From Nostoc sp. PCC 7120 = FACHB-418 (GTDB taxonomy: Bacteria > Cyanobacteriota > Cyanobacteriia > Cyanobacteriales > Nostocaceae): 32,000 nt of DNA. The stretch lies in NCBI RefSeq assembly GCF_000009705.1, contig NC_003272.1, positions 540,001-572,000 on the forward strand. The letters are read 5' to 3'. The notes beneath the pieces were generated by a model. It was not told the origin of the DNA. It did not search any database and saw only the letters and a program-made list of their open reading frames with translations. Positions 5,434 through 25,637 of the stretch are shown here, one piece after another. A program made the position numbers and the translations under genes. Numbering within the stretch: the stretch's first letter is position 1; each line of letters opens with the position of its first letter.

Positions 5434-5679
5434 ATGATTAACCCTGTAACGAACGTCATTCGCGTCAATCAGGCAATGGCAAAAGAAGTTGCTCATGAGT
5501 GGGAGCGAGCCTCATGTAGTGAAATCAGTGCCTACTGTTTACATATCTTGCAAGAGATTGGTTGTAGTTATACTGAACTCCCAGAAAACCTACAAACACG
5601 CGAACAGCAACTTAACTTAATCGCAGGCTTTGCATCTTATGCTTTTGGGGAGGTAGAAAATGTCCAAACTGCTAATTGA
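5434..5679 (+). CDS. Hypothetical small protein, first of an overlapping pair
   Basis: The ORF-track entry starts at a TTG at 5431, and an ATG follows at 5434. Its 3' end overlaps the next ORF by 20 nt. I recognise no family. Confidence 0.4.
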   Translation: MINPVTNVIRVNQAMAKEVAHEWERASCSEISAYCLHILQEIGCSYTELPENLQTREQQLNLIAGFASYAFGEVENVQTAN

Positions 5680-5950
5680 AGATAATTTTGAAGATAATTT
5701 CTATGCTTCAGAATGGGCAGAGACGGTAACTGTACCAGCAACGGATGATGATTTGTTAATTTTGACTCAAAAGTTATCTAATCAGTTCGTCCCGACCCAG
5801 GTATTTTTTCAAGCTGTAGCGATCGCTGCCTATGATGGTGCATCCGCTTTCCGCTATGCTGATAATTATTTGACTAGCGCTAAACATAAAAATAGGCGTA
5901 AAAATCCCTTGTTGTTCAGGAAACCGTTGACAAATTTTGATTATAACTAA
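5660..5950 (+). CDS. Hypothetical small acidic protein, second of an overlapping pair
   Basis: 96-aa ORF whose start overlaps the upstream ORF, which suggests translational coupling. I recognise no family. Confidence 0.4.
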   Translation: MSKLLIEDNFEDNFYASEWAETVTVPATDDDLLILTQKLSNQFVPTQVFFQAVAIAAYDGASAFRYADNYLTSAKHKNRRKNPLLFRKPLTNFDYN

Positions 5951-9100: not shown

Positions 9101-11614
9101 GGGTGTACCCGTTTGAGGTAATTGTACAGCGATCGCACCACTCGCAGTTAATCCCGGAGTTGTGGCACGTTGTACTATAATCTGCTTGCCATTCCATTGA
9201 AATTGGGCGGTAATTGGTTGCGCTAACTGTGCCAACCCTTGAGAAGCGTTGATTTGTCCTGCGGCGCGAATATCTGCTAGTTGGAAAGATGCTGTCGTCC
9301 CTGCCAATTGAATGTTACTGCTGAGTCGTCCTTGCAGTTGGGGAGAAAAGCGGTTGAGTTGAATTTGGTCAGCATTAGCCACGGCTTGCCAGCGACCATC
9401 ATTTAAACTGACATTCCTCAGGTTAACTGCACCCCCAGCCACCTTCAAATTTGCTTGACCGTTAGCTTGGATAGTTGAGGGTTGGAAAGAAGCCGTGCTA
9501 CCTGACAAATTAAATACCGCATTGCTTAACACTCCCTGAAACTGGGGCGGTATCTGCTCAAATCGGTCGAGTTGAATTTGGGAAACATTCGCCACCGCTT
9601 GCCAACGCCCAGCATTGAGGTTGACATTCCTCAGGTTGACTGTACCACCTGCCACATTTAGGTTTGCTCGTCCTGTAGCTTGGATGGTTGAGGGTTGGAA
9701 AGAAGCCGTGCTACCTGACAAATTAAATACCGCATTGCTTAACACTCCCTGAAACTGGGTTGGTATCTGCTCAAATCGGTCGAGTTGAATTTGGGAAACA
9801 TTCGCCACCGCTTGCCAGCGTTGTTGAGCAACCCGACCTGTAGCCCTAATTGTACCGCCTGCCACATTCAAAACAGCACTGGGTAAAAGCAGATTATTTC
9901 CTTGTTGAGCAACAACAATTTCTCCTGTAGTGGGATAGGTAGCCGTTGGTGCTTGCACTTGTGTCACCGCCCGCAAATTGCCCAGAGTGCCAGAAACTCT
10001 AGCATTTGCCGATACATTACCAACTTTGACGGCTGCGTTTGTCTTCGTCAGTTCATCCCCCGGTAAATTTTGGGCTTGAATATTCAACGAAACGTTACCT
10101 TGGGGCGCAAGTTGGACTTGACCACTCCCGACAATTTGCCCCCCGGCTGGTGGTTGTACTTGAACACTAGAAATATTCAGTGCTAAAGGCTGTTGTCCCA
10201 AAGAACCAGTGATTTTTGCCCTAGCGGAGATATTTCCCACCTGAATAGGTGGAGTTATGCCATAACTACGTGACAGTATATCCCCTGAAATACCATCAGC
10301 CTGAATATCAAAATTTACATTGCCGCCCAGTTGACCTTGACCACTTCCTGTAATTTGACCACCTGCGGCGGGAATTAATATTAAATTAGGTACAGCAATT
10401 TGAGTTGCAGTTTCAGATACACTCAAGCGGAAATTAGTTTTTACGCCTGTAAATAGAACGCGGTCAACTTGAATCGGTTTGATACTGCTGGCTGTACCAC
10501 TCAGAATAGGTTGCTCTAATGCACCTTGGACTTTAATATCTGCTGTTACTTCCCCTGCTGCGGGGATTGGGGAATTTACCTTGAGGGTGTCTAAGAGTTG
10601 TTTGACACTAACCGACTTTACTTGAGCCGCCAGATTAAAACCTGTTTGAGTATTAACTGTGCCATTTGCGAACAAGGGAACTTGACCAAAGTTTGTCCTC
10701 AAATTCTCTAAAGCAATAGTCTGTCCTTGAAATATTAATCTGCCATTGGCTTTAGAAAAAGGTTGCGGAAGATTTTGAACTTTAGCTGTAACTTGATTGG
10801 CGGTGGCCGTTCCCGTAATCGATATTTCTGATTGATTGGCGGGAATCTGGGCTGCTAAGTCCGCGTCAATCCGCCCAGATTGAAAGACAATTGGCAACTG
10901 AACTAAACGACTGACATCTGATGCTAGTAAGCTTTGCGCTACAACCTGAACATTAGTAAGTTGTGTTTTTGGTTGCGTTTCACCGGAGATTTGAACTGTT
11001 CCTCCCCTGGTGAGTTGACCATTAATTTGATAACCTATTCTCTCGTTATCAGGCGAAAATCGGGCAACACCACCGACCTGCGTTAGTACAACCGAGCCTT
11101 GCGGTTTAGTTGGTGCGGAGGCTGATAATAATTCAATATTTCCATCAACAATATTTAGGGTTTGCAACTGAGTCTGGATTGCTCCACTTCCTTCACCTGT
11201 CTTTACTTCAGCCATCACCCAACGACCATCTTGCTCCTGTTGAATATAGACATTTGGTTTAACTAAGGTGACATCTAATACTAGCGTCCGAGTGACAAGA
11301 ATTTGCCACGGGGAAAACTGCACATCTACAGCTTGTGCTGTTACTGTATCAGGATCGGTAGGGGTTGCTGGTATTGATAGAGAGCTAAATCTGAGGCTGG
11401 AGAGGGTAAAACCTTCGACTTGCCCTAATTTTATAGAACGTCCGAGCAATTGCTCTAAATTTGTCTCAACTAAAGGTGCTAAATCGTTATATATGTAATT
11501 TCTCGCCCACCAAGCACCAGTAGCGATTCCTCCTAGCGCCATGACTCCTAATACCAGACTGGCTCGTCTGGCAAGAATTAGAGATAAACGGCGGTGATTT
11601 GGAGAGCGCGTCAT
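6125..11614 (-). CDS. tamB: TamB-like translocation and assembly module protein (AsmA-like/DUF490 C-terminus), inner-membrane anchored and periplasm spanning
   Basis: 1829-aa ORF with one N-terminal TM helix (LVLGVMALGGIATGAWW). The body is very long, beta-rich and G/N/Q/T/V-rich. The C-terminal region ..RLTGGRISLFTTEFTLARGY..FTPNQGLDPILDVRL.. ending in LFEYETRF is typical of the TamB C-terminal domain. Confidence 0.8.
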   Translation of the reverse strand: MTRSPNHRRLSLILARRASLVLGVMALGGIATGAWWARNYIYNDLAPLVETNLEQLLGRSIKLGQVEGFTLSSLRFSSLSIPATPTDPDTVTAQAVDVQFSPWQILVTRTLVLDVTLVKPNVYIQQEQDGRWVMAEVKTGEGSGAIQTQLQTLNIVDGNIELLSASAPTKPQGSVVLTQVGGVARFSPDNERIGYQINGQLTRGGTVQISGETQPKTQLTNVQVVAQSLLASDVSRLVQLPIVFQSGRIDADLAAQIPANQSEISITGTATANQVTAKVQNLPQPFSKANGRLIFQGQTIALENLRTNFGQVPLFANGTVNTQTGFNLAAQVKSVSVKQLLDTLKVNSPIPAAGEVTADIKVQGALEQPILSGTASSIKPIQVDRVLFTGVKTNFRLSVSETATQIAVPNLILIPAAGGQITGSGQGQLGGNVNFDIQADGISGDILSRSYGITPPIQVGNISARAKITGSLGQQPLALNISSVQVQPPAGGQIVGSGQVQLAPQGNVSLNIQAQNLPGDELTKTNAAVKVGNVSANARVSGTLGNLRAVTQVQAPTATYPTTGEIVVAQQGNNLLLPSAVLNVAGGTIRATGRVAQQRWQAVANVSQIQLDRFEQIPTQFQGVLSNAVFNLSGSTASFQPSTIQATGRANLNVAGGTVNLRNVNLNAGRWQAVANVSQIQLDRFEQIPPQFQGVLSNAVFNLSGSTASFQPSTIQANGQANLKVAGGAVNLRNVSLNDGRWQAVANADQIQLNRFSPQLQGRLSSNIQLAGTTASFQLADIRAAGQINASQGLAQLAQPITAQFQWNGKQIIVQRATTPGLTASGAIAVQLPQTGTPQIAGLNLNVRAQNFDLSKTGFQTPGDVAIAGLLDFNGQVTGTLNTPAARGNIRLRNFNVGSLAFDPVLTGNVNFQGGQGASLRLAGTQDKIALNLDANYRPSSFLVQRAGAVTTGRTEGDNLIINAQQFPIALVSGFLPNNQFRPLGGELSGNLVVNLNTYAVAGDVAIANPRIARASADEFRGNINYADGTASLANGLLRLGDSNIAVSGSLQAGNDPSFQLQANLNQTRVENLLQAFSIFDFGDFGGGLESPTLAGAEALNTTPVRLPNADLQTQLEYFAKIQASIRQQQQADRQQTPALPSLSELTGALSGAITASGSLRTGLNVGFDFQGADWRWGDYSINEVVANGNFADGVVTLSPLRIGINQGLVAFAGQLGTEELSGQLRVDSLPLSLFDPFITRYPIDITGQVNAIANLAGSLQQPRVTGEVALANATFNQQPIQTGQLNFDYNNARVNFDSTLLLTGTQPIAIAGSIPAELPFVAEPPDNNHISVNASVNNEGLALLNVLTNNQVTWVDGQGQVNLNIQGTFEQPIINGNATITNATIGAQALANPLTNVTGTLQFNGDTLNVQGIQATYNQGLVSASGNLPIFATGETVTNPLTVAIQNQLNFQVAGLYTGDVSGNAVIRGTALRPRIGGEITLSNGQVTIGNTTANSKQTTTTETNTRATTIELNSNIPEATVTQQPPTRPNLPVEFADLRLNLGDDVRVTSQSLLGFLPGGEVFSQPILSFDAEGDLIINGTLASPLPEGVIRLTGGRISLFTTEFTLARGYEQTARFTPNQGLDPILDVRLVAIVPEASTRSDRILESPFSAEISDVSANNFGTLRTVRVQARATGPASELTNNLELTSEPRRSRGEIISLLGGSILSDFAQGDATQGLTNFASSTILGGLQGTITAIGQAIGFSEFRIFPTPTTNQESRRASVLDLSAEGVFNLNPNLSVSLSRAFSTTEPLRYNLLYRLSDEILVRGSTNLGNESQFLFEYETRF
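9250..9820 (-). repeat. Internal tandem duplication in tamB: two 213-nt (71-aa) units plus a degenerate third
   Basis: The units start at 9820 and 9607, an exact 213-nt offset. Both encode RWQAVANVSQIQLDRFEQIP(T/P)QFQGVLSNAVFNLSGSTASFQPSTIQA... The cores at 9469-9608 and 9682-9821 are nearly identical at nucleotide level. A third diverged unit starts at 9394 (RWQAVANADQIQLNRFSPQLQGRLSS..). Confidence 0.85.
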
Positions 11615-11767: not shown

Positions 11768-12307
11768 TTAATTAGAAACTCTGGCGCAAGATGCCCCAGC
11801 ACCTCCTGGATCAGCGAAAACAGCCAGGGTGTGATATTCTGGCGGGGTATCTTTATAAAGAACTTTAAAAGTATAAAGTTTGCTTTGACCTTGAGCTTCA
11901 GTAATTACTGTTAAAAGTGTATTGTCGGTACTCCGCACACCCGGAAGATTGAGTTTAGGAATCCGTCGCAGTTGAATAACATTAGCGGCTGAGTTTTGAC
12001 AATTAGCACCGCTTTCTGGGCCAAACTGCATACACATGGGGCCGTCAAAGTCTAGTGTTACCTGAGAAGGATCATTTAACCAAACTTTGCGAATTTTTTC
12101 GCCTGCGGGAATAAAGCTTAGGTTTGTCCCTTGTTCGTACCAGACTTTGATAGTCGGGACTAATCCACCTAAACCTTGTGCTTGGCAGGAAAAAATAGAA
12201 CGCAGAACAGAATTTTCAGCTACAGCACGACTTCCCAGTAAAACGATCGCACCAGAAAAAATCCAAGTAGCTAAAGACAAAGGAGAAAAATTATTTTTAG
12301 CCTTCAT
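11768..12307 (-). CDS. VirB9/TrbG-like periplasmic component (N-terminal-domain-like only), T4SS-like operon gene 9
   Basis: 179 aa with a signal peptide. The segment EKIRKVWLNDPSQVTLDFDG...NVIQLRRIPKL...TLLTVITEAQGQSKLYTFKVLY follows the VirB9 N-domain pattern (I..V..GD...W.V....l.iKP....TNl.V.T..R.Y.F.L). Its start lies 19 nt after the VirB10-like stop. Confidence 0.45.
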   Translation of the reverse strand: MKAKNNFSPLSLATWIFSGAIVLLGSRAVAENSVLRSIFSCQAQGLGGLVPTIKVWYEQGTNLSFIPAGEKIRKVWLNDPSQVTLDFDGPMCMQFGPESGANCQNSAANVIQLRRIPKLNLPGVRSTDNTLLTVITEAQGQSKLYTFKVLYKDTPPEYHTLAVFADPGGAGASCARVSN

Positions 12308-12326
12308 GAAACGAATGAAAAATTAC

Positions 12327-13847
12327 TTAAAGTTGTATTGGTTGATTGACATATATTTCTACTTCGGTTCCAGCGCCAAGAAGCCAAACATTCGTTTGCT
12401 GCATCATTTGGGCGATCGCCTGTTGATTACGCTGGGAAATTTGCGGGACGACGGAGTTTAAACCACCTTCCACAATCCCGGCCGCTAAGTTGCGTTGGGG
12501 GTTACTGCTGCTAATTGTGGTTCCAGCACTAGTAGAAGTTGTTACTTGGGATTCTGTGCGGTTAAATAACTCTGCGGCTTTAGCCACACCACCTAAAATA
12601 AACAAACCTGCATCCATGCCGGCAATAGATGAACCGCGATCAGGATATTGGCGTGCTAATAAAGGAGAACCTTGAGACCCCCGAATTGCCAGCGCATTGT
12701 TGGGTATATCTCTTTCCGAGAGTTCGCCATTATTCTCCACAATCATTTTGGCGATGTTGAGTTGCATCACCCCTTGTTCGGAAACCGATCGCACTTCAGT
12801 TAATAACTCCGTATTGGCAGGTAAGGCGATCGTTCCATCCACGCCTTTGAGGGGTTCTCTTAAGCGAACAACAAACAAATTTTTATTTTCGTTGTTGTCG
12901 TCATTGTTACCTCTCCCTCTGGTTGTTTCTCCAAAGACAGCTGTTGCCAACACAGCTTTTGCACTAGTTCCCACCTTCAATGATTGTGGGCTGCGGGATT
13001 GCCTTTGACTGATCAGCGAACTTGATGGTTGTGGCGGTTGTTCTCCATTAGAATTCGCGGTCGGCCGTGGGACATTAAGTGGCGGCGGACTAGAGACAGT
13101 CATACTTGGTTGATCTACAGCACTTGCTTGACCATAACTACCTAACTTAGCCATCCTCGACCATTCTTCCCAAGGATTGGGAGGGGTGGGTACAGAATTT
13201 GGCTGTGCTAAAGGTGGTGGCGGTAGTTGGGGAATTGTAGAACTGGCTACTGGCATCGGTGCAGGTGGATAGGGATTTTGAGCAGGACGCTCAATAATCA
13301 CAGTGCGGGGTGCTGATGTAGAGGTTGTTGGCGGTGCTACTCGTGTCACAGGAGCGTTAGTTGGGGGAACGGAAACCCTGGCAGCATTTCTGAGATTTTG
13401 CTGTGCGACTTTTACCGCCTGGGTTTGTTCAGCCAGTGCTAATTTAGTTTTTAAAGTTTCTACTTCTTGTTCCAGGTTTGGCTTTGGGTTGAAGTTGGTA
13501 GCTGCGGCTTCAGGCTGAGATACAGCTGCTGGATTCTGTGTTGGCTTTTGATTGTTAGCACTCATCAGCTGGGATAAAAACCCACCAGCTATGACAACTA
13601 AGACTAAAGTACCCGTACCCACCAAGGCTAATTTAGCAAAGGGGTTAGATGCGAGGGGTTGCTCTGTTTGTACCTCTTGTGGTAGCGCTGGGGATGGCTG
13701 GTTTGGTGCTGTATCTGCCACCTCTTGGGTGGGTTCTGCTGCCAATCCCACTAATCTAGCCATGTGGGATTCCCAATCAAAGGCATCTACTTCGGGGTGG
13801 GTTAGGGGTTTTGGTTGAGTTTCGGGAGTGGTGGAGTAAGGAGTCAT
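12327..13847 (-). CDS. VirB10/TrbI-like envelope-spanning component
   Basis: 506 aa with the canonical VirB10 layout. It has a cytoplasmic N-terminus, one TM helix (LALVGTGTLVLVVIAGGFL), a long Pro-rich linker (PPTNAPVTRVAPPTTS...PQLPPPPLAQPNSVPTPPNP) and a C-terminal beta domain. That domain reads GTSAKAVLATAV...ALPANTELLTEV...NVWLLGAGTEVEIYVNQPIQL, which parallels the TrbI/VirB10 motifs. Confidence 0.75.
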   Translation of the reverse strand: MTPYSTTPETQPKPLTHPEVDAFDWESHMARLVGLAAEPTQEVADTAPNQPSPALPQEVQTEQPLASNPFAKLALVGTGTLVLVVIAGGFLSQLMSANNQKPTQNPAAVSQPEAAATNFNPKPNLEQEVETLKTKLALAEQTQAVKVAQQNLRNAARVSVPPTNAPVTRVAPPTTSTSAPRTVIIERPAQNPYPPAPMPVASSTIPQLPPPPLAQPNSVPTPPNPWEEWSRMAKLGSYGQASAVDQPSMTVSSPPPLNVPRPTANSNGEQPPQPSSSLISQRQSRSPQSLKVGTSAKAVLATAVFGETTRGRGNNDDNNENKNLFVVRLREPLKGVDGTIALPANTELLTEVRSVSEQGVMQLNIAKMIVENNGELSERDIPNNALAIRGSQGSPLLARQYPDRGSSIAGMDAGLFILGGVAKAAELFNRTESQVTTSTSAGTTISSSNPQRNLAAGIVEGGLNSVVPQISQRNQQAIAQMMQQTNVWLLGAGTEVEIYVNQPIQL

Positions 13848-13872
13848 GGTGTATTAATTGGGGAGTGGGGAT

Positions 13873-14565
13873 TTAGTTAGCAGTTCCAGCGCAATTTGTA
13901 TCTTCGATATTGCAGATATTGTAGATTTCTAAGCGAGATTCCCCTAAGCGGAAAGCGGCTAAATGCCAAGGCTGGGGTTGAGATGGTAGAGAAATAGACG
14001 GTTCATCTATAGATCGAACTACAATTTGTTTATTAAAAGGAATTGACTTACCTAAATTGTCAGAACCATTAAAAATTAATTGATTGGCAAACATTTCTAC
14101 TTTCCATTGACCCTCGCTCACTAGTTTTGGTTGCGAGATTTTCTGGATTACCAATACATGATCATCACCTCTATTAGTATTACCAAATTGGCTCGGAGAA
14201 TTTAACTGATTAATTTCTGATAAAAATCTTGCTTGTAAATTATTAACTAATAACTGTGAACTAGCTTCCCAGATAGCTGCTGGTGGTTGTTTGCGTGACC
14301 AAGTAAGCATGAGGCTCATAGTTTCACCCACAAAGCGGCGGACTGTTTCTGGATGTCGCTCTGAACTTGGTTTGGGGTCTGCTGTAATGGCATTTCCATC
14401 AATAAGTTGTACCAAGCTTTGGGGTGTTAATTGACGATTTAATTGCTGTAACATCGACCCGTGGAACATCAGCAACAGTAAAGTAAACAGGTTTAACCCA
14501 AATGTCCCCACAGCGAACAGGGGTAAAATACTAGTTTTTTTATTTTCTGGTTTAAGTAGCTGCAT
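13873..14565 (-). CDS. VirB8/TrbF-like bitopic membrane protein, paralog B
   Basis: 230 aa with a short N-terminus, a single TM helix (ILPLFAVGTFGLNLFTLLLLMF) and a periplasmic domain of about 190 aa. It shares ETVRRFVGETMSLMLTWS, PFNKQIVVRSID and LEIYNICNIE with the upstream paralog. The VirB8 assignment rests on topology and operon position only. Confidence 0.45.
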   Translation of the reverse strand: MQLLKPENKKTSILPLFAVGTFGLNLFTLLLLMFHGSMLQQLNRQLTPQSLVQLIDGNAITADPKPSSERHPETVRRFVGETMSLMLTWSRKQPPAAIWEASSQLLVNNLQARFLSEINQLNSPSQFGNTNRGDDHVLVIQKISQPKLVSEGQWKVEMFANQLIFNGSDNLGKSIPFNKQIVVRSIDEPSISLPSQPQPWHLAAFRLGESRLEIYNICNIEDTNCAGTAN

Positions 14566-14578
14566 AAAGTTGGGGACT

Positions 14579-14663
14579 AATCAATTCAAAATTCGTCTTG
14601 AAAAGTTTCCTACGGCGGGAAACCCGCCTACAGAACTTTTCGCAAAATTCAAAATTCAAAATT
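14579..14663. repeat. Dispersed-repeat element inside the T4SS-like operon spacer
   Basis: The 16-mer aatcaattcaaaattc (14579-14594) recurs exactly at 28567-28582. It is followed by an interrupted hairpin gaaaagtt..ggcggg aaa cccgcc..aacttttc (14600-14641) and then caaaatt x3 (14643-14663). Confidence 0.55.
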
Positions 14664-14733
14664 ATAGTGACTTTGAGATGGTGAGGAAAAAATCAATAGC
14701 CTCTAGCCTATGTCCTACGTACCTCTGGGTAAA

Positions 14734-15555
14734 TTATCTAATAAAGCTGCCAGCTTCGCAGGGATAGGCTGCGCTTGGATTTGTGTTTTTATAGTCATCT
14801 AATAAACATAAATTGCGGATTTCATAAATTTCTAATTTGTCAGTGCGACTACTATAAATTGCTTTTTGTAGGTCGGTGCTATTTTCGGCTAAGGGATAAG
14901 GAAAATAGTCTACTGCACGTACTAATAAATCTTTATTGAAAGGAGTAATTGTTTTTCTGTTATCGCTACCTTTGGTTTGAATCAGGTCAGCTACCATCCC
15001 CACCCGCCAGGTTCCGGGTGCGATCGCCACTGGGGGGTAAACTCGTTTAATGGTTAATTGTGCTGACATAGCTTGAGTAGGATTGCTGGCAAAAACTTCT
15101 GGTGGAGTCATATCAGCGATCGCACTTAAGAAACCTTTGCGAAAATCCTCTGATAAGGCGAAACTCGCTACCCAACTACTAGTGCTGACTCGCTGGCTAC
15201 CTCCTTGCGCCGTTCTAATCAATATTCCTGGGTCTGGTTGGGGTTTGGCGATGTCTTCCGCGTTTTGTGGTGGTAGAGTTCCCGACCAATTAAACATGGA
15301 TATCATCGTTTTACTAACAAATTGGCGAATCACAAAGGGATCTCTGGCTAAATCGTCCGTAACGCCTGCTGGCTTACCATCAATTGTCTGCACAAAATTG
15401 GGGGGTTTGCGGATACTCAATTGGCGAATATTTAAGCCTTGGATGAGAAATATAACTAATACTAATAAGTGCAAACTAAAGGTGGCGATCGCAAATGTCG
15501 TCAGAATACTAACTGTTTGTTTTTTCTGTTGCAAAAAATTGACCATTTTCCCCAC
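14734..15555 (-). CDS. VirB8/TrbF-like bitopic membrane protein, paralog A
   Basis: 273 aa starting at the GTG at 15555, with an alternative ATG at 15546. It has a single TM helix (ILTTFAIATFSLHLLVLVIFLI). It shares FVIRQFVSKTMISMFNWSG, PFNKDLLVRAVD and LEIYEIRNLC with paralog B. Confidence 0.45.
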   Translation of the reverse strand: MGKMVNFLQQKKQTVSILTTFAIATFSLHLLVLVIFLIQGLNIRQLSIRKPPNFVQTIDGKPAGVTDDLARDPFVIRQFVSKTMISMFNWSGTLPPQNAEDIAKPQPDPGILIRTAQGGSQRVSTSSWVASFALSEDFRKGFLSAIADMTPPEVFASNPTQAMSAQLTIKRVYPPVAIAPGTWRVGMVADLIQTKGSDNRKTITPFNKDLLVRAVDYFPYPLAENSTDLQKAIYSSRTDKLEIYEIRNLCLLDDYKNTNPSAAYPCEAGSFIR

Positions 15556-15634
15556 CCAATTTATATAAAAATTCTATTTAATGTTAGAAGCTTAAACCCT
15601 ACTATTCCCAATTACCCATTACCCATTACCAATT

Positions 15635-16687
15635 CTAGATTCTGTCTCTAACGATAGTTGCTGCATTACTAATACCATTAAATACTGCTACAGCCCCCAA
15701 CCCTGCCAAAACTAAAGATAATAGTGGTGCTAAAACTCCTAAGAAAATCATAAACCACATCAAATCTGGATTAGCATTCGGGTCTTGTGCGGGGCCGTTG
15801 ACAATTACAGAGGCGGTGATAATAGCAATAATATTGAAGGAAAGTTTGGCAATTCCTGCTGATAAAAACCCAGTTAACCATAGAAAAATCGGTTTACCAG
15901 CTACAGGAAGTAAGGAACTACCTACCGCTAGCGGCCCTAAGACTGCTATGAGTAACATAGTTGCTTCTATGAGATTTTGAAAAGCATATTGCAAGGAAAC
16001 CAGAAAGTTTTTAATACTAGTTTGGACTGTATTGCCTATCAAAGCACTAAAGTTAGTTTCCGATATATTGCCTGTACCAAATCTGATTTGGTTAACTTGA
16101 GTTTCTAGCCTAACTATCCAAGGTTTATTCCCATATAAATTTCTATATTCTCTCCAGAGATTATCTATTTTTTCACTAGCTTTAGTAAAGCATTGAGTTT
16201 GTTGTTCACCAGTTAAAGATTGACAAGGACGAAGTAGTGAACCAGCTACTTCTTCAGCAATACTCATGTTTAATGCTTGCTGATAAACTAGGTCAGCATC
16301 TGCGGTGGTAACCACTTGCTGATTGACAGTATTGATAAAATTTCTGACACCTAATGTCAAAGTAGAAAGAAGACTACCATTACCTGAATTGCTTAACAGC
16401 ACAACTACAATAAAAGGCCAAACAAGAGCCGATATTGGACGGGAGTATTCGCTGTGAATCATATCATTAAACCACTGGAGGACAAAGAATAATAAGGTTC
16501 CGACAGCAAAGAATATTCCTAGTTTTGTTAAGGCTCCATATAAGTTATCATTGGTATTATTTTGTAATAAATCTAGCCATTGATTGTCCCAACCTTCTGT
16601 GATACTACGAGCCGTTGCCATACCGCTATTCAAGGTATCAGTAACGCCAATATCAGCTAGGAGCGTGTAAATCGGGAGTTTAATCAT
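15635..16687 (-). CDS. VirB6/TrbL-like polytopic inner-membrane protein
   Basis: 350 aa with several TM helices and a large hydrophilic loop between hydrophobic blocks (VVTTADADLVYQQ...ISETNFSA). It sits immediately after the VirB5/TrbJ-like gene, as in trbJ-trbL arrangements. Confidence 0.5.
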   Translation of the reverse strand: MIKLPIYTLLADIGVTDTLNSGMATARSITEGWDNQWLDLLQNNTNDNLYGALTKLGIFFAVGTLLFFVLQWFNDMIHSEYSRPISALVWPFIVVVLLSNSGNGSLLSTLTLGVRNFINTVNQQVVTTADADLVYQQALNMSIAEEVAGSLLRPCQSLTGEQQTQCFTKASEKIDNLWREYRNLYGNKPWIVRLETQVNQIRFGTGNISETNFSALIGNTVQTSIKNFLVSLQYAFQNLIEATMLLIAVLGPLAVGSSLLPVAGKPIFLWLTGFLSAGIAKLSFNIIAIITASVIVNGPAQDPNANPDLMWFMIFLGVLAPLLSLVLAGLGAVAVFNGISNAATIVRDRI

Positions 16688-16763
16688 AATATTTATACAA
16701 CTATATTCTCTATGTCTTTATGGCAGAAAATAATGACAAGAGAAAAATAGATAAAGTAGTAGT

Positions 16764-17561
16764 TTAATTTTCATTTTTTCGCCCAAATAAATCGATTTGA
16801 GCGGTAGTTCTCAACAGCCTCGCTGCTTCTGTGGATGTGTCTACTCGCCGCGCCCGATTTGCTTCTTCCATCTGCTGAGAAATATTTGCCAGATTTAAAT
16901 TAGAGTATTGTAAAGACTGATTTGCTAACACAGTTTGATATAAGTTTTCACTGATAATTTTTGATTGTTCAGTTTGAATTTTAATACTTTGCACTTGTAA
17001 GTCAGCTTGACTTTGAGCCGCATTCAGTGCTGGATTTGCAGCAGCCTCAGCAGTCTTAACGGCTGCCTGGAGAATGCTAGCTAAACCTGATTGGATTTGA
17101 TCAGTTAAAGCAGAATATTCCTCAATTTTGGTGATACTTGTTTCTGTATCTTCCAATTTTGCTTTCATTCTTCTTTGTCCATTTTTACCCAGTGTTCCTT
17201 CTACCGAACTCCGGGTGAGGTAACGATTAATTTCATTTGTCACTGAGTTGGAACGTATCGCTTGATTATTTTCAAATTTGTCAGGTCGAGAATTAAAAAA
17301 GATGATGTCTTTGCGAACCTGCTCACCAGCTGCAATAGGATTGGGTATATTCAAATCACCTGTTGCACCATTGAGAGCATTTTGACTGCTAGTTTCTAGA
17401 GGTTTTAAAGTTTCACTCAAGTTATATTTCAAATAGTTTTGCAAATCTGTGGAGTAGAATTGAAATTCAGTCCAAACTCTTCCTAGTTGTGCTGTAGCTG
17501 GCGCTATCAACAATCCCAGTAATCCCAATGTGAATAAAATAGTTTTTTTCATTGCCATCAC
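16764..17561 (-). CDS. VirB5/TrbJ-like secreted helical protein
   Basis: 265 aa. It has the signal peptide MMAMKKTILFTLGLLGLLIAPATAQ and a Q/N/A-rich, probably coiled-coil body. Its start lies 16 nt after the VirB4 stop. The assignment rests on size, export signal and position. Confidence 0.4.
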   Translation of the reverse strand: MMAMKKTILFTLGLLGLLIAPATAQLGRVWTEFQFYSTDLQNYLKYNLSETLKPLETSSQNALNGATGDLNIPNPIAAGEQVRKDIIFFNSRPDKFENNQAIRSNSVTNEINRYLTRSSVEGTLGKNGQRRMKAKLEDTETSITKIEEYSALTDQIQSGLASILQAAVKTAEAAANPALNAAQSQADLQVQSIKIQTEQSKIISENLYQTVLANQSLQYSNLNLANISQQMEEANRARRVDTSTEAARLLRTTAQIDLFGRKNEN

Positions 17562-17577
17562 CGTTCGTATTTTTTGA

Positions 17578-20325
17578 TTAACTACTACGCAAACTAGCTA
17601 CTAATTGACGGGCAAATACTGATATTGCTTCATATTTATTCCTGTAATCTTGCATTGCTTGTTGACGTGCTGTTTGCTCGTTGGGATTATTAGCAACTAC
17701 TGCCAATTGTTCATAGCCTGGATAATAACGACAGAAGGTATGAATGCCGTTATCATCTAATAGCCATTGGCTATAAACACCTTCTTTGCGGGGGAAAAAA
17801 CTTTCTGAGGCGTTACGTGCAATAATTTCTCTGGGATATTTGAGGATGCTAACGAAACTATCTACGGCAACTGGTTGGATACGACCAATTAATCTTGTGG
17901 TCAAGTTTTGTAAAATTTTGGATGAGGCTTTAGATTTGGCGATGGTGTCTGGGTCTTGTGCGGATAAAATAACCCTAATCCCTGCTTTAGCGCCGTTTGC
18001 ACACATCCTACCCACTAAATCAGATATTTGATCAAATTCAAATAAAATCGGTGCTTCATCAATAAAGAATATGGAGGCTGGACTACTTAAGGCGCGGCGT
18101 AAGGCGGCTGAATAAGCACTTAAGGATAGTACGGCTGCATCTTCGTTATCGGAGAGGTTGCGTAGTGCAAATACCAAAAGTTGTGCGTCTGTAGGAAAGC
18201 TAGAGGGTGCAGATATGGCTTGTCCTACCCGACTGGAAAGCCAAAAGCGTAAGCGTAGATGAATTTGACTGAGTGCGTCTTCAACTCGGCCACTGACGGA
18301 ATCTAGTTGCAGATGTTCTGGGGAACAAAAATGTAGAAAGTCGTGGAGAGTAGGGGTTTTTTGCCAGGCTGGAGTACCAAATCCACCAGCGATCGCCATT
18401 TTATATCTTTCTTGTATCCCTTGATCAGCGAAGAAGGCGCTTAAAGCCAAATTGAGTAGGGAACGGACGGTTTGTGTTAATAGTTGGTTGTCGTTGGATG
18501 AGCCTAACACCATTGTCATGAGGGCTGATTCCAAAAAGCCCGTATAATCGAGTAAGCGATCGCGTTGTTGTTCAGGATCGAGCGATCGTAAATCTGGTTG
18601 CTCAAATAAGTTATTTGATTGTCTAGAAATATCGAAATATGCCCCATTCCCTTCCATAAAATGGGCATAGTCGGTAAAGGTAGATGTCCCATCAGGTTTA
18701 GGAAAATCTAAGGCGACTACGGGAATCCCATGCGCCAAAGCCTGGGTTAAAATTCCTGACACCAACACTGATTTACCTGCGCGGGTAGTCGCAAACAAGG
18801 CTAAATTCTTGTGTTGGTTGAATAAATCTAACTGTACTGGTGTACCGCCTTCTTCGGCGATTAATTCAAAGCCGTGTTTATCACCAGCTTTGGTAATCAC
18901 TAAAGGCATTAAACCAGGTACTTCACTAGTTAAATATAACTGGCGACGGTTGAAGGGTTTGACTAATAAACCTTCCCAAACTATGGGTAAAGATTGTAGC
19001 CAAATCTTCCAAGCATATTCAGTTTCTCTCACCACCCGCGCCGGACGTTGAAAGCAGTTTTCAATATACCGTGTGGCTTCATCTAATTTTTCAACGGTGG
19101 GACGATGGACAAAAATAGCCAACCCTGTGTAAATTGGTACGGCTCCTTCAAATAATTGTTCTTGGGCTGCGACGGATTTTCTTAATTTCAATTGAGCGTT
19201 AACATCAATCGTTTTGCTCTTTTCCTGGGCTAACATAGCCGTCATGTTCGACTGTTTCAACACTCTTTGCAGAGTAGTCTTTACCAAAGCTGGATTCGCC
19301 GCCGTCAGTTGACACACAATTTCTGTATCTACTATCGATTCCCTCGCTAGGAGTTCCCATAGATAACGCAGTTGGGCAAATTTATTCGGCCAACCCCCTG
19401 GTTTTTCTAGAAAAGTCATCGCCCCAATGTAATTATTATTCACATTGACCCAACGGCGATCGGCACAAGGTACACCAGACTCCATCAACAGTGTCGTACT
19501 ATGAACATTTTCTATTAATAGTTGCGTACTAGATAAGTCAGAATGAGCTTGTTCATACAGTCCATTTTCATCTAGGGTTACTAATTGGGGAATTTCGATT
19601 GGTTGGGTATCATTAAACCTTCTCCAAACGTTTTCCCAAAGTTCCACCGCATTTAAAGGTTTAATATCTAAACCCATTTTGTTAGATAAAAGTTGCTCCC
19701 AACGACAAAATCCCTGTTGGTAAGCCTTAGCAATCACACTTTCGATTCGTTGGTTTTCAACTTCTGCAATATCACCTTTGAACTTTAACCACCATCCTTC
19801 TGCTTTTCCTAACAGCTTTTCAATCCAATCGTTGGCGTTGGTGGAACTCGGTTCAATTGTATAAGTAACGTATATTTTCAGAAATTTTGGCTTACGAATT
19901 CCCGCAGCAGTGAGTTCTTGCGCCCTAGCTCTCTCCGCCATCAACAAATATTTAATATCTCTTGAGGGAGTGCGCCTAATCAGGTCTGTTAATTCTATTT
20001 GCCGTTGTTGGTCTGAACTAAAAGACCCCATGTGCAGTGTCATTCTTTCCCCTTCGGGAATGTCCTTTAATCCAGATTCAATGTTATTAAAGATTGTGTC
20101 TATTTGTTCTTTTCTTAAAGTGGTGTGGATGCCTTTGCATTCAAACCCAAAAACAAAGCAAAATTTATCCTTTTGAGTTCCTTTTGTTAAAATATAAGCG
20201 CCAACATCACGACCATCCAACGCAATGCGTAGCATGGTTGACAAATGTAACGCATCTTCAAATGGCGTTAATCTACTTTCTTGTCCGGCGAGACCGATGC
20301 TTTGTTTTCCGATTTTTTGCTTCAT
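17578..20325 (-). CDS. virB4: VirB4/TrbE-family T4SS ATPase
   Basis: 915 aa. Walker A is ATTRAGKS in LFATTRAGKSVLVSG, encoded near 18774-18797. Walker B is IFFIDEAPILF. Overall length and the N-terminal CagE/TrbE/VirB4-like region fit the family. The start overlaps the upstream small ORF by 53 nt; an alternative start is the Met at residue 31. Confidence 0.9.
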   Translation of the reverse strand: MKQKIGKQSIGLAGQESRLTPFEDALHLSTMLRIALDGRDVGAYILTKGTQKDKFCFVFGFECKGIHTTLRKEQIDTIFNNIESGLKDIPEGERMTLHMGSFSSDQQRQIELTDLIRRTPSRDIKYLLMAERARAQELTAAGIRKPKFLKIYVTYTIEPSSTNANDWIEKLLGKAEGWWLKFKGDIAEVENQRIESVIAKAYQQGFCRWEQLLSNKMGLDIKPLNAVELWENVWRRFNDTQPIEIPQLVTLDENGLYEQAHSDLSSTQLLIENVHSTTLLMESGVPCADRRWVNVNNNYIGAMTFLEKPGGWPNKFAQLRYLWELLARESIVDTEIVCQLTAANPALVKTTLQRVLKQSNMTAMLAQEKSKTIDVNAQLKLRKSVAAQEQLFEGAVPIYTGLAIFVHRPTVEKLDEATRYIENCFQRPARVVRETEYAWKIWLQSLPIVWEGLLVKPFNRRQLYLTSEVPGLMPLVITKAGDKHGFELIAEEGGTPVQLDLFNQHKNLALFATTRAGKSVLVSGILTQALAHGIPVVALDFPKPDGTSTFTDYAHFMEGNGAYFDISRQSNNLFEQPDLRSLDPEQQRDRLLDYTGFLESALMTMVLGSSNDNQLLTQTVRSLLNLALSAFFADQGIQERYKMAIAGGFGTPAWQKTPTLHDFLHFCSPEHLQLDSVSGRVEDALSQIHLRLRFWLSSRVGQAISAPSSFPTDAQLLVFALRNLSDNEDAAVLSLSAYSAALRRALSSPASIFFIDEAPILFEFDQISDLVGRMCANGAKAGIRVILSAQDPDTIAKSKASSKILQNLTTRLIGRIQPVAVDSFVSILKYPREIIARNASESFFPRKEGVYSQWLLDDNGIHTFCRYYPGYEQLAVVANNPNEQTARQQAMQDYRNKYEAISVFARQLVASLRSS

Positions 20326-20656
20326 AGTTAACTTCTAGCAAGCTGTAATAACGAGCAAAGCCTCTTGTCCAAGTGGGAACCCCCATAAACTTACTTAAAA
20401 AGCGCCAGCTTCTACCACCCGATAATATCCACCAAGTGGCCATTCCCCAACCAGCAATGAGAAAAGTCCACAACCATCGTTGAAAGTCATCTGGGAAAAC
20501 ACCCCCAAAAATTCCATTGATGATGAAGTAAGCAGATAGACAAATAATTGTCCAAGGAAATATTTGATCGGCAGGAATTGGCCCTAGTGAGGGCTGAGAG
20601 CCTAAAATTTGATTGACTGGGCGAAATTCTTGTTGCCGTTCCTCAGACATAAACAA
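20273..20656 (-). CDS. VirB3/TrbD-like small membrane protein
   Basis: 127 aa with two hydrophobic helices (WTIICLSAYFIINGIFGGVF and WLWTFLIAGWGMATWWIL). It lies directly upstream of VirB4 and overlaps it, which is the canonical VirB3 position. Confidence 0.5.
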   Translation of the reverse strand: MFMSEERQQEFRPVNQILGSQPSLGPIPADQIFPWTIICLSAYFIINGIFGGVFPDDFQRWLWTFLIAGWGMATWWILSGGRSWRFLSKFMGVPTWTRGFARYYSLLEVNYEAKNRKTKHRSRRTRK

Positions 20657-20679
20657 TCCGTAAATATTTAAGCCATCAT

Positions 20680-21297
20680 CTACTTACTAGTATCACCTAT
20701 GACAAATCCTGTTAAAACATCTGCAATAGTGACAGCAATTACAACTAACAGAGGAGTCCTGGCAATACTTTGCCAATCCTCATCTTTACGTACTGCATTG
20801 ATTACGCCAATGAGAGATACTGCAATATACAGTAAGAATATTCCCCGTAATACGTTAAAAATTAAACTTACTGCTGGTTGCGTATTAGTATTATTTGTAG
20901 TTCCTTGGGTTAATGTATTTTTGAAAAAACTTTCTGCCTTGCCAAAGAATTGTGCCTGTGCCGGAAAGGCGAAATAATCTAACCAAAATAAACTGAAAAT
21001 GACTGCTACTGCTGATATTTGGCATACAATAAGCCACCGTTTTGGTAAATGCAATTGTTGTCCAATCTGTTGAATTATTATAGCGGTTAAACTACCAAAC
21101 AGTAAGCAAAAAAGGAGTAAGGGGCTTTTTAAGCTGATAACGCTTAAAAATACTGCACAAGCTAATAAAAATGGGGCTGATTCAACCAAGTTTATCCACA
21201 CTGCTTTTAAAGTCGATTTGAATTTATCCCCAGGTTGTGTTACCTTTCTTGCTAAACTTTGACCTTCTTTTTGGACGTTAACACTCTGTCTAGGCAT
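20680..21297 (-). CDS. Polytopic membrane protein with a VirB2/TrbC pilin-like C-terminal module; first gene of the operon
   Basis: 205 aa. After three N-terminal TM helices there is an AxA-type site (FPAQA/QFF). A two-helix hairpin follows, AVSLIFNVLRGIFLLYIAVSLIGVINAV - RKDEDWQSIAR - TPLLVVIAVTIADVLTGFVIG. That is the architecture of T4SS pilin subunits. Inference only. Confidence 0.35.
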   Translation of the reverse strand: MPRQSVNVQKEGQSLARKVTQPGDKFKSTLKAVWINLVESAPFLLACAVFLSVISLKSPLLLFCLLFGSLTAIIIQQIGQQLHLPKRWLIVCQISAVAVIFSLFWLDYFAFPAQAQFFGKAESFFKNTLTQGTTNNTNTQPAVSLIFNVLRGIFLLYIAVSLIGVINAVRKDEDWQSIARTPLLVVIAVTIADVLTGFVIGDTSK

Positions 21298-22025
21298 TTA
21301 CCAATTTCCTTGCTATTTATTAAAATTTTTTGTTGGTAATATTGTTTAAACTTTGATAATTTATCATGCAATAACGCCCTTTGTTCAACAAGTTATTGAT
21401 TCTAATTACAATACCTATCCATGATATTACATATTGTTAAAATTGAGTTAATGCAATCTTAACATTATGTTAAATCAAGATTGGCAACTGCACATATCGC
21501 ATGGCTGTAGGGTTGTCATATTCGCTTAAAGGTATTGATAGACAAGGTTTCAAAGATGTTTACTTAAAGCTTGCTTAATCTCCATAAAGAGAACTTAATT
21601 TTGTTGTAGATATCCAGCAATTTTCAATAACATTTTGAAGAATTGGCGAAAAATGCTATGCTTAACCAAAGAAATTATTTAATTTTTTAAAATCTTCAAT
21701 TGAACTTATTACTCCACTTAAAAGTGATTTTAGCTATAATAATAGCTCCTATGGTGTTTTGACTATGGGTTAAGCAACTATCATTTGCCACGCCCCTGAT
21801 AAATAAAGCCTAGTAGACGTGAGTGACTCCATCTCTCAAATGCACATCAAAAATTTTGTCATCAATAGCTAGTTATTAAACCACAAATGATCGCCTGTTT
21901 AACAACCTTTGCACTAGGTTAATAGATAGGTAGGTAAATGTCCAGCGTAAAACTCTCCAATTCGCTGGCTGTTGTCCGTATAGTTGTATTGGCTAGTCGA
22001 TTCAAAAATTTGTCTATTCTCATCA

Positions 22026-23570: not shown

Positions 23571-23900
23571 AGTTGAGATTGTTTGTTGAGTTATTTTAAT
23601 AAAGCATAGTTGAAATGACTATGACTTTCAATCAATGCTGGATATGAGTGTGTCGTGTGACTAAGGATTAGTTTAAGCAAAAAATCACTGCTTAGTGAAA
23701 ATACTTAAATATACACAAAATTTTATATAAATTTTTATACAGTAAATCTCTTAAAACAATCTTAATTTCTAGGATTTTTATCTCAGGATATTGCATAAAA
23801 GAAAGATCCCAAACAAATAAGTTAATTGAGGTACATAGTTTAATTCATGCACTCTGTATTCGGAGTATTAGCTAAAATATTTAATAGAAAATCATTGATT

Positions 23901-25637
23901 ATGAAAATTAGAAAAATCGCTTGTGCTTTAACCCTTGCTACTACCTTAATTGCAGGTATTACACTCAAGGCAAATGCTGAACAACCTCTTGGTGTAATTA
24001 CCCGTAAAAGTGAAGTTGCTCCGGAAGGTGTAGCGCGTGAAATTAGAGGAACTTTTCAATTAGAAAATGTCACGAAATATCCTTTGATCATCGAATTTTC
24101 TCCTGTGAGAACAGAATCATACTTATTTAATGTAGGGGAACGCAGAATTATTCTCAAGCCTGGTGAATCGAAGGAAATAGCTTATATAGGAGGGATTTTT
24201 CAAGACGGTAAGTGGCAAATTAACTTTCAATTAAGACTACTGAGTGAACAAGGTATTCTTGCTGGTCGTCATACTGTAGATGTTTATTTCTTAGTAGAAA
24301 AAGGTAAGTATCAAGCATCTACTTATGAAAAACTATTTTTAGTACCTGATGTACGAGATTCGGTATTGGGAGACTCATTTTCTGTCAATCAAGATGATGG
24401 ATCAATTCCTCGCGCACCTTTAGGAGATATTCGATATCCGGCAATGAAAGACTTGCTGAATATGCAGCGAGAGTCCATCTTGAAAATTCCTACAGAATCT
24501 TCAGGTAAAGCCGAAAGACCTACTGTTAATATCACTAATCCGACTATTCGCCAACCTAATATTCGCCAACCGATTTTATCTCCTACTCCTATTTTGAAGT
24601 CTCTGGCATCAAATAAAACTTTGTTAGCTTCTGGGACTGTACAAGCTAAGGGAGTGTTTTCTTGGAAGGGAATGGATAATCTGTTACATCCTGCATTTGG
24701 CTGGCGTGTACGCGCATGGCGGCTACAGGGTGGTAATTGGGTAAAAGTAGCAGAAGATTGGATTGAAAGTAATGGTTCTTGGAACCTTTCGTTTCCTCAA
24801 CAAGCGGGTAAAGTTAAGTTTCAGTATGTGGCGTTTAATCGCTTTTTTACCCCTCAAACCTCTTCAGGAGACACTTATCGCTGGGTAGGCCCAGAAAGAA
24901 GCAGTGTAAGTTTGACCCATAACGAAGGTGGCTGGATAGCAGATACATCTGGTGGTGCAGTCCGGGGATTGGGTGAAGTTTATAAAGAAGGGATGGATCT
25001 TTGGTCTAAACTATATTGGGATGGTGGGATTAATCCAGTACGTAAAGAATCAATCAAGGTAATTTTTCCCAATACGGCTTATGACTGTGGTAATGGTAGT
25101 GGAGTACCTTGGAGTTGCGCTAACACTGGCGGTAATATTTGGCTAATTCCTTCTCATGCCAGTCGTAACGGGGTGATGCAGCATGAATTGGCTCACCAAA
25201 TCAATTATGAGTATTGGGATAATAAAAGACCTGCGGGTTCTGGTGGTAGCCACACTTTAGGCGATTGTTATACACCTGGTTTAGCCATGATGGAAGGCTT
25301 CGCCAACTTTATGGTTTTCTGGACACAAGCTGCGCGTGGTGCATCTCCTGATGGTGGCTTTGATTTTGCGGTAGAAAATCCAGCTTTTGCTTGTCAGAAT
25401 CCCATTAATAGAAACGAGTCTTGGACTGCGGCTACATTCTGGGATTTTCATGACACCCGCGCCGATGGTCAGGACAATTTATGGTTTAATCATCCGGGTG
25501 CAGTTCCAGGAATTTATTTGCGTGCTGGGATGAAATCTAGCATGGCAGATTTTGCAACTATCTATCGTAATGGTGCCAATGCAGAACATCGCACTATTAT
25601 CGATAATATTGCTCGTCAAAACTTTATTATTCCTTAA
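23901..25637 (+). CDS. Secreted HEXXH protein, putative gluzincin-type metallopeptidase-like
   Basis: The likely start is MKIRKIACALTLATTLIAGITLKANA (signal peptide) at 23901; the ORF-track start is 23847. HELAH lies in NGVMQHELAHQINYEYW, and a downstream MMEGFANF could supply the third zinc ligand, as in HEXXH...EGF(A/T) families. Confidence 0.6.
   Translation: MKIRKIACALTLATTLIAGITLKANAEQPLGVITRKSEVAPEGVAREIRGTFQLENVTKYPLIIEFSPVRTESYLFNVGERRIILKPGESKEIAYIGGIFQDGKWQINFQLRLLSEQGILAGRHTVDVYFLVEKGKYQASTYEKLFLVPDVRDSVLGDSFSVNQDDGSIPRAPLGDIRYPAMKDLLNMQRESILKIPTESSGKAERPTVNITNPTIRQPNIRQPILSPTPILKSLASNKTLLASGTVQAKGVFSWKGMDNLLHPAFGWRVRAWRLQGGNWVKVAEDWIESNGSWNLSFPQQAGKVKFQYVAFNRFFTPQTSSGDTYRWVGPERSSVSLTHNEGGWIADTSGGAVRGLGEVYKEGMDLWSKLYWDGGINPVRKESIKVIFPNTAYDCGNGSGVPWSCANTGGNIWLIPSHASRNGVMQHELAHQINYEYWDNKRPAGSGGSHTLGDCYTPGLAMMEGFANFMVFWTQAARGASPDGGFDFAVENPAFACQNPINRNESWTAATFWDFHDTRADGQDNLWFNHPGAVPGIYLRAGMKSSMADFATIYRNGANAEHRTIIDNIARQNFIIP

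Follow-up and report, generated by a model that had tools for sequence, protein, structure and literature searches.

Why should the chromosome of a heterocyst-forming cyanobacterium carry most of what looks like a conjugation apparatus and none of the parts that would deliver DNA? The question is raised by nine genes, all0463 to all0471, which an exact-sequence look-up places on the chromosome of Nostoc/Anabaena sp. PCC 7120, at positions 11768-21297 (minus strand) of the 32-kb stretch of DNA analyzed here, referred to below as the window. A sequence-only reading of the window had taken them for a type IV secretion system (T4SS) anchored on VirB4 and VirB10 and had suggested that it might be a domesticated machine of the mating-pair-formation class C (MPF-C). 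Our analysis bears this suggestion out. The cluster is very probably a vertically inherited, domesticated derivative of a cyanobacterial MPF-C conjugative T4SS that has no coupling protein: it is homologous throughout to plasmid-borne MPF-C loci, it is syntenic across 80 loci with low ratios of nonsynonymous to synonymous substitution (dN/dS), and the type IV coupling protein (T4CP) is gone.

MPF-C, one of eight T4SS classes (Guglielmini et al. 2012, 2014), was defined computationally on pCC7120alpha, and the defining papers report no experimental knowledge of it (PMC3548315, PMC4027160, PMC5587801), in agreement with the description of the class as functionally uncharacterized in the sequence-only reading. 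The literature on all0462-all0471 that we could find amounts to two table entries (PMC4365693, PMC10406281), with no functional study, and we found none dealing with an MPF-C derivative of heterocyst formers that lacks a coupling protein and has been passed on vertically throughout the lineage. Systems of this general kind are already known, since relaxase-less T4SSs are common and the ComB and Ptl systems provide precedents. The locus nevertheless offers a natural minimal MPF-C, stripped of its DNA-processing parts and kept under strong selection in a genetically tractable model organism, making it possible to test what a T4SS can do without a coupling protein and why heterocyst formers keep one. 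With nine genes, no VirB7 and no VirB11, it is also a compact structural target for a very divergent T4SS.

Nine co-directional minus-strand open reading frames (ORFs) fill the interval (Table 1). From the first gene (all0471) to the last (all0463) they are separated by 23, -53 (an overlap), 16, 76, 79, 168, 25 and 19 nt; the spacing of 16-79 nt or overlap claimed earlier is right for the other gaps and wrong for the 168 nt between all0466 and all0465. Orthologue alignments and RefSeq protein lengths revise the likely starts of three genes relative to their longest ORFs, to about 20650 for all0470, 17552 for all0468 and 15546 for all0466.

The arrangement of the nine genes is widely conserved. 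Each of the 80 best genome matches, taken as the cluster with up to 10 kb on either side, shows the identical nine-gene order wherever the contig is long enough, an arrangement that, repeated across 80 loci, is far beyond chance. These loci lie on Nostocales chromosomal contigs, save two in metagenome bins labelled Leptolyngbyaceae and Acetobacteraceae, and the identity of VirB4 (all0469) falls from 99% to 84% across Anabaena, Nodularia, Nostoc, Fischerella, Chlorogloeopsis, Scytonema and Tolypothrix. The flanks vary, with no gene family common to more than 34 of the 80 loci. In pairwise comparisons VirB4 has a dN/dS of 0.04-0.06 and the remaining eight genes have values of 0.05-0.25, and the Walker A and Walker B motifs of all0469 are identical in 80 of 80 orthologues. 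On a simple neighbour-joining distance tree without support values, the chromosomal VirB4 proteins form a tight, short-branched clade, with a copy from Gloeothece as its sister, inside the long-branched radiation of plasmid MPF-C and apart from MPF-T. Because gene order is kept while flanks vary, dN/dS is low, the Walker motifs are invariant and the tree takes this shape, the data indicate that the system was captured once, long ago, and has since been inherited vertically with purifying selection acting on it, unlike a decaying element. Both the VirB4 phylogeny and the Nostocales synteny survey had been proposed as checks on the sequence-only reading, and both came out in its favour. The cluster is intact in every heterocyst-forming relative sampled and therefore probably does some job for the cell.

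Its distribution is linked to heterocyst formation, though not strictly. Among 58 cyanobacterial genomes the all0463 orthologue group is confined to heterocyst formers and absent from all non-heterocystous strains, and the obligate symbiont Nostoc azollae, itself a heterocyst former, reportedly lacks it (PMC4365693). A set of 96 heterocyst-specific orthologues includes two TrbI-like proteins, which may map to all0464 (PMC3141437). In our data the unicellular Gloeothece verrucosa PCC 7822 carries a chromosomal-type gene set on an 879-kb replicon (locus L082, 6161-14745), with two VirB8-like genes, a VirB4 at 76% identity and, as far as 12 kb around, no coupling protein; the order of this copy is permuted (0468-0467-0466-0465-0464-0471-0470-0469) and no homologue of all0463 was detected in it. 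Orthologues of all0463 and all0468 in Nostoc sp. NIES-4103 (P0129, P0430) are annotated as plasmid-borne. Because of the Gloeothece replicon and the NIES-4103 annotation, the cluster is neither strictly chromosomal nor strictly heterocyst-linked, and its earlier description as chromosomal applies to PCC 7120 and most loci and fails for these two.

The origin of the system can be read from its plasmid relatives. Searches with tblastn recovered VirB4 relatives aligning over their full length, at 24-76% identity, from 136 plasmids that are nearly all cyanobacterial; short Vibrio fragments were the only other matches. The plasmid loci compared, which include pNPUN02, a Tolypothrix PCC 7601 plasmid, pNe_2, pANACY.01 and pREB6, are ordered as B2-like, B3-like (sometimes fused to VirB4), VirB4, B5-position, B6-like, a single B8-like, TrbI and B9-like. 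With jackhmmer, each of the nine chromosomal proteins could be tied to the genes in the corresponding places across seven plasmid loci, at E values between 1e-29 and 1e-170. The accessory families of MPF-C hence accompany VirB4 at the cluster, and all0469 itself, with a full-length identity of 53-60% to the closest plasmid MPF-C VirB4 proteins, is assigned by sequence to the cyanobacterial MPF-C VirB4 clade. Chromosomal and plasmid types share eight protein families in identical order, and neither has VirB11.

The two types part company in the genes for DNA delivery. In most plasmid loci the B9-like gene is followed by a gene of 399-870 aa (annotated as an M23 peptidase in pREB6) and then by the coupling protein, and MobF or DUF3854 genes lie nearby in two; no coupling protein appears in the stretch of pANACY.01 that was read, and the locus of a Picosynechococcus plasmid is disrupted after the B5-position gene. 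The chromosomal type, by contrast, has no T4CP, no relaxase or DUF3854 genes, no large post-B9 gene and no tail on its B9-like protein; it carries two VirB8-like genes where the plasmids carry one, and it is vertically inherited and slow-evolving. Searched with tblastn, the T4CP, the DUF3854 (relaxase/primase-like) protein and the 399-aa gene of pNPUN02 have no homologue in the window, nor in any of the 80 loci up to 10 kb from the cluster, a Pfam scan of the flanking proteins revealed no coupling-protein, relaxase or integrase domains, and there is no tRNA in the window. The locus does not show the marks of a self-transmissible element (a T4CP, with relaxase, integrase and a tRNA or repeat attachment site). 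The earlier statement that coupling protein, relaxase and VirB11 are missing is correct at the cluster, and the concern that a T4CP and relaxase might sit just outside the window finds no support within 10 kb of the cluster in 80 genomes; the flanking genes in PCC 7120 are housekeeping genes. VirB11 calls for a different interpretation: because the plasmid MPF-C loci read also have none, its absence from the chromosomal cluster is a trait of the class and no special loss. What the chromosomal type has specifically lost is the T4CP, and its possession of one ATPase is only partly a chromosomal loss.

How far can the individual proteins be assigned to T4SS families? Pfam and NCBIfam scans of the nine recognize only TrbI and, weakly, VirB4, and PDB searches with the single VirB4 and TrbI sequences, or with profiles of the B9-like and B8-like families, returned spurious matches (designed repeat proteins, a methyltransferase) or none. 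Because standard libraries and single-sequence PDB searches gave so little, we built our own family alignments and profiles from the 80 chromosomal and 8 cyanobacterial plasmid loci and compared them, using hhalign, with MPF-T profiles of five sequences each, drawn from the operons of R388 (NC_028464), an IncN plasmid, Campylobacter pTet, an IncX4 plasmid and a Mesorhizobium plasmid. The all0471, all0468 and all0467 profiles were compared against 7 canonical families.

The two anchors of the sequence-only reading hold, and the motifs it had quoted are present. The prediction of all0469 as VirB4 is firm: its profile aligns with MPF-T VirB4 over 412 columns (98% probability, E 2e-13), NCBIfam TraC/VirB4 models match at E ~1e-12, and Walker A (ATTRAGKS, residues 512-519) and Walker B (IFFIDE, 752-757) are in place. 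Equally firm is the prediction of all0464 as VirB10/TrbI, which RefSeq names a TrbI/VirB10 family protein; Pfam TrbI (PF03743) matches residues 290-505 (E 2e-10, 41.3 bits against a curated cut-off of 35), behind a transmembrane (TM) helix at 73-91 and a linker (100-290) with 19% proline. A GC-skew spike of +0.25 (GC 0.49) at 13001-14000 of the window corresponds to this proline-rich linker, encoded on the minus strand.

Among the other seven, the best case is all0466. No sequence-level VirB8 signal was found for it in profile searches, and its AlphaFold2 model (pLDDT 68, pTM 0.58) has VirB8-family periplasmic domains as its top Foldseek matches in the PDB, with the IcmL-like 5cnl first (E 1.6e-4, TM-score 0.69), followed by TraM 3wz3, Bartonella VirB8 4lso, DotI, CagV, R388 TrwG and Agrobacterium VirB8 at target TM-scores of 0.6-0.7. 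The modelled fold thus identifies all0466 as a VirB8 protein. By paralogy the same assignment would extend to all0465, which falls in one family with all0466 in jackhmmer searches and alignment, each (longest ORFs of 273 aa for all0466 and 230 aa for all0465) having a single N-terminal TM helix by hydropathy.

Three further assignments are modest. The all0463 profile matches MPF-T VirB9 (E 2.4e-4, 150 columns, VirB9 positions 2-156) and all other families at E >=0.2; Pfam matches within its family are weak, with CagX in 2 of 18 members (best 0.0013) and DUF4138/TraN in 3 of 18. Hydropathy indicates a signal peptide, and alignment shows that the protein has neither the ~90-aa C-terminal tail of its plasmid homologues nor a C-terminal VirB9 domain, so that it probably represents the N-terminal half of VirB9. 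The all0467 protein has five TM segments and a large loop (103-243) with invariant cysteines C155 and C166; it resembles VirB6 best of the 7 families (E 0.006, 214 columns), and one of 18 family members matches Pfam TrbL/VirB6 (E 4.8e-5). For all0471, which opens the cluster as virB2 does, the C-terminal 98 aa align with MPF-T VirB2 over 70 columns that include the cleavage-like motif (E 0.0045, again best of 7). Hydropathy places its TM segments at 37-106, 145-163 and 183-201, the C-terminal part forming a two-helix hairpin, and motif and hairpin are kept in chromosomal and plasmid homologues alike. An earlier HHsearch analysis linked MPF-C families to VirB3/TraL, VirB6, VirB8, VirB9 and VirB10 and found no VirB2 homologue (PMC4027160).

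The remaining two are less secure. For all0470 the best canonical match is VirB3, at a very weak E of 0.05-0.1, and the tentative assignment draws on position, since in plasmid MPF-C loci its homologues immediately precede VirB4 and in three of these loci (L085, L086 and L087) are fused to it. For all0468 the name VirB5 is purely positional. Its longest ORF (265 aa) begins with a signal peptide by hydropathy and its homologues occupy the same position in plasmid loci; the best canonical match is VirB5 at an E of 0.088 only, and AlphaFold2 produced a low-confidence, all-helical model (pLDDT 53) for which Foldseek matches stayed at E 2 or above. The family is small, with 167 relatives (clustered at 50% identity) in a profile search of 1.84 billion cluster representatives, and none of 111 remote relatives has a Pfam VirB5 or TrbJ domain. 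Three of these 111 (within P0460-P0581) have weak Pfam matches to the TrbC/VirB2 pilin, the best at E 6.9e-4.

We treat the B2, B3, B5 and B6 assignments as provisional. The earlier assignment of the seven non-anchor genes consequently survives in part: the VirB8 fold and the modest VirB9, VirB6 and VirB2 profiles, each with the expected family as best match, place more than VirB4 and VirB10 in T4SS families, VirB3 relies mainly on position, and 'B5' does not stand as more than a place in the order. The topologies proposed at the same time agree with hydropathy for the TM, signal-peptide and hairpin proteins. Relative to the MPF-T systems of R388 (Trw) and Agrobacterium (VirB), the cluster has a similar architecture and gene order, the VirB8 fold of all0466 and a VirB4 domain at the E of 2e-13 given above, whereas single-sequence similarity is too low for PDB matches and VirB1, VirB7, VirB11 and VirD4 are missing.

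Table 1. Genes and intergenic features of the all0463-all0471 cluster, in window coordinates
Feature	Coordinates	Strand	Description
upstream intergenic region	21298..21983	.	686 bp, AT-rich, before all0471; presumed operon promoter region
all0471	20680..21297	-	205 aa, VirB2/TrbC-pilin-like: long three-TM leader, A-x-P-A-x-A-Q-F-F motif, two-helix hydrophobic hairpin
all0470	20273..20656	-	~125 aa, VirB3-like small membrane protein; 53-nt overlap with virB4 start
all0469	17578..20325	-	915 aa, predicted VirB4-family ATPase, MPF-C clade; sole ATPase of the system
all0468	16764..17561	-	~262 aa, secreted, all-helical, Gln/Asn-rich, in VirB5 position
all0467	15635..16687	-	350 aa, VirB6/TrbL-like polytopic inner-membrane protein
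all0466	14734..15555	-	~270 aa, bitopic protein with predicted VirB8 fold, paralogue 1
internal gap	14566..14733	-	168 nt before all0465; predicted FurC box CAAAGTCACTATAATTTTG containing TATAAT
all0465	13873..14565	-	230 aa, VirB8-like, paralogue 2; 31% identity with all0466
all0464	12327..13847	-	506 aa, predicted VirB10/TrbI: TM helix, Pro-rich linker, C-terminal TrbI domain
all0463	11768..12307	-	179 aa, VirB9-like, secreted; a single domain corresponding to the N-terminal one of VirB9

What could such a machine do? We know of no T4SS that recruits a cytoplasmic substrate without a coupling protein. Activities that T4SSs do perform without one are pilus assembly, DNA uptake of the ComB type and export of periplasmic substrates of the Ptl type. 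Since cytoplasmic substrates need a coupling protein, the machine should run in a coupling-protein-independent mode; and since the cluster still encodes a pilin-like protein whose cleavage-like motif is conserved, along with a secreted protein in the VirB5 position, the minimal model is a VirB4-driven channel with a filament. The parts retained are the VirB4 motor, VirB3-like, VirB6-like and two VirB8-like components in the inner membrane, a periplasm-spanning VirB10, a one-domain VirB9-like outer component, a candidate VirB2-like pilin and the secreted helical protein in the VirB5 slot; those lost are the DNA-delivery parts, namely the coupling protein and the relaxase/primase-type genes, together with the large post-B9 gene. 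As we picture it, a VirB4 hexamer would dock on the inner-membrane platform of VirB3, VirB6 and VirB8 and pull processed all0471 pilin-like subunits out of the inner membrane, and these would polymerize into a short filament that passes through the channel of VirB10 and the VirB9-like protein to the cell surface, perhaps with all0468 at its tip. Channel or filament might be used for contact with other cells or with surfaces, or to take hold of external DNA, and would not serve donor conjugation. We put this working mode forward tentatively, as an idea more open to doubt than to belief. Identity and working mode taken together, a domesticated MPF-C machine operating without a coupling protein is probably, with ample room for error, the best overall explanation of the locus.

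The alternatives differ mainly in what they would have the machine carry. The ComB system of Helicobacter pylori, like the cluster, is a chromosomal, host-serving T4SS with VirB2, VirB3, VirB4, VirB6, VirB8, VirB9 and VirB10 and without coupling protein, VirB11 or relaxase, and on this model external double-stranded DNA would cross the outer membrane to the periplasm and then enter the cell through a ComEC-type channel. The likeness would be an analogy of gene complement only: ComB is of the MPF-T lineage, with VirB7 and a two-domain VirB9, whereas the cluster has an MPF-C VirB4, no VirB7 and a one-domain VirB9-like protein, so that any resemblance would be convergent and common descent is unlikely. 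The cluster additionally keeps a VirB5-position gene, which ComB does without, and two VirB8 paralogues. Natural competence as described in cyanobacteria depends on type IV pili and not on a T4SS, and comEC, comEA and dprA are not linked to the cluster within 10 kb. Retention in free-living strains, together with the reported loss of all0463 from the genome-eroded Nostoc azollae (PMC4365693), would fit a role in gene exchange; even so, we consider uptake of this kind improbable. We give much the same small chance to an export role in which a protein or envelope component already in the periplasm would be moved over the outer membrane while heterocysts differentiate or afterwards. The two TrbI-like proteins among heterocyst-specific orthologues (PMC3141437) would speak for it. 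The precedent is the Ptl system of Bordetella pertussis, a T4SS that needs no coupling protein and whose substrate is not delivered from the cytoplasm, but Ptl keeps VirB11 and adjoins its toxin genes, and the cluster has neither VirB11 nor a conserved substrate candidate next to it. A link to heterocysts is further weakened by the upstream 686 bp, where no DIF1 (TCCGGA) or NtcA (GTAN8TAC) motif was found, by the heterocyst-forming Nostoc azollae being reportedly without all0463, by the copy in unicellular Gloeothece, and by the literature searched, in which no cluster gene was found as a heterocyst-defect (Fox) gene.

Two further explanations make the locus a partner or a relic of mobile elements. 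As a helper, the cluster would supply the channel for resident plasmids that provide coupling protein and relaxase in trans. A relaxase without VirB4 or VirD4 is predicted on many Nostocales plasmids and plasmid alpha of PCC 7120 encodes an MPF-C VirD4 and relaxase (PMC8600333), and homology between the chromosomal and plasmid systems extends to all their parts. A coupling protein usually makes specific contacts with its channel, however, and the chromosomal proteins are only 24-54% identical to their plasmid counterparts; benefit to plasmids poorly explains strict vertical retention at dN/dS of 0.04-0.25 across the order; and the VirB9-like tail and large post-B9 gene, kept by all conjugative versions, are gone. 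We therefore rate helper conjugation as quite unlikely. The possibility that the cluster is a functionless, decaying remnant of an integrated conjugative element would be in keeping with the absence of coupling protein, relaxase and integrase near it and with its low expression. It is effectively refuted by nine intact, colinear frames in 80 genomes, purifying selection on every gene and invariant ATPase motifs, to which the short-branched clade adds, and the gradient from 99% to 84% identity across genera contradicts the recent transfer of a single element; we leave it hardly any credence.

Several observations weigh against our own account of a domesticated MPF-C machine working without a coupling protein. 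Pilus and envelope complex are predictions made from the genes, among which the VirB2, VirB3 and VirB5 assignments are weak, with E values of 0.005-0.1 or position behind them. Neither a VirB7-like lipoprotein nor a cell-wall hydrolase was found, leaving insertion in the outer membrane and passage through the peptidoglycan unexplained. Plasmid alpha encodes a full MPF-C with VirD4 and relaxase (PMC8600333), which makes a coupling protein acting in trans possible, and our T4CP search spans the cluster and up to 10 kb per side. The taxonomic picture is drawn from the best 80-120 relatives, and its outer boundary is uncertain. Expression is also a difficulty: in the RNA-seq supplement of Flaherty 2011, all0463 has 1-11 reads (0.1-4 in units akin to reads per kilobase per million), and induction is uneven, with all0465, all0467, all0470 and all0471 changing ~1-2-fold.

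The same supplement shows, for bulk RNA, that operon expression is low and rises after nitrogen step-down. A bolder version of the domesticated MPF-C account would have a plasmid conjugation machine captured by heterocyst formers and turned into a lineage-wide organelle, raised in nitrogen starvation and serving multicellular life, for example through exchange between or export from differentiating cells, or as a dedicated DNA-uptake or contact filament. We think this rather unlikely. If true, a T4SS would for the first time be seen to have been exapted by a multicellular bacterium for development or physiology, and the MPF-C class would gain its first functional handle.

Regulatory signals around the operon are sparse. 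The promoter presumably lies in the intergenic region upstream of all0471, in which a scan for sigma-70 sites yielded no more than shuffled sequence. The internal gap before all0465, where a FurC box has been predicted (PMC10406281), may act as an internal promoter for all0465-all0463. No VirB7-like lipoprotein ORF was found in this gap.

The genes flanking the cluster encode TamB, Dps, a ChaB/YflT stress protein, a nucleotidyltransferase, a ZIP transporter, MurG and an SDR protein; a TamB homologue (all0462) and Dps (all0458) lie downstream, and ZupT (all0473) upstream. We rejected every flanking gene as a part of the system: none occurs in more than 34 of the 80 loci, TamB adjoins the cluster only in the four closest relatives, and asr0460/asr0461 are adjacent in four loci only. 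A reading as a defence system was likewise rejected: the sole PADLOC match, mad8 on the ATPase domain of all0469 (E 8.6e-15), is taken as generic similarity of the HerA/FtsK type. The two small ORFs at ~5431-5950 (plus strand), asr0460 and asr0461 by coordinates, resemble all0463 in occurring among heterocyst formers only and in being missing from Nostoc azollae (PMC4365693). The all0462 protein (6125-11614, minus strand; 1829 aa; Pfam TamB, E 7.5e-79) contains a duplicated 71-residue module, visible in the DNA as 2.2 tandem copies of a 213-nt unit that are 88% identical (9347-9817). On the other side, alr0474 (23847-25637, plus strand) encodes a 596-aa protein with a signal-peptide-like N-terminus, a metalloprotease-like HELAH (HExxH) motif and no Pfam match, and is induced ~5-fold after nitrogen step-down (Flaherty 2011 supplement). 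Unrelated to the cluster, the minus strand of 28722-31979 encodes a WD40-repeat protein of more than 1085 aa that runs off the window, with a coiled-coil middle and a 123-nt tandem repeat at 29289-29528.

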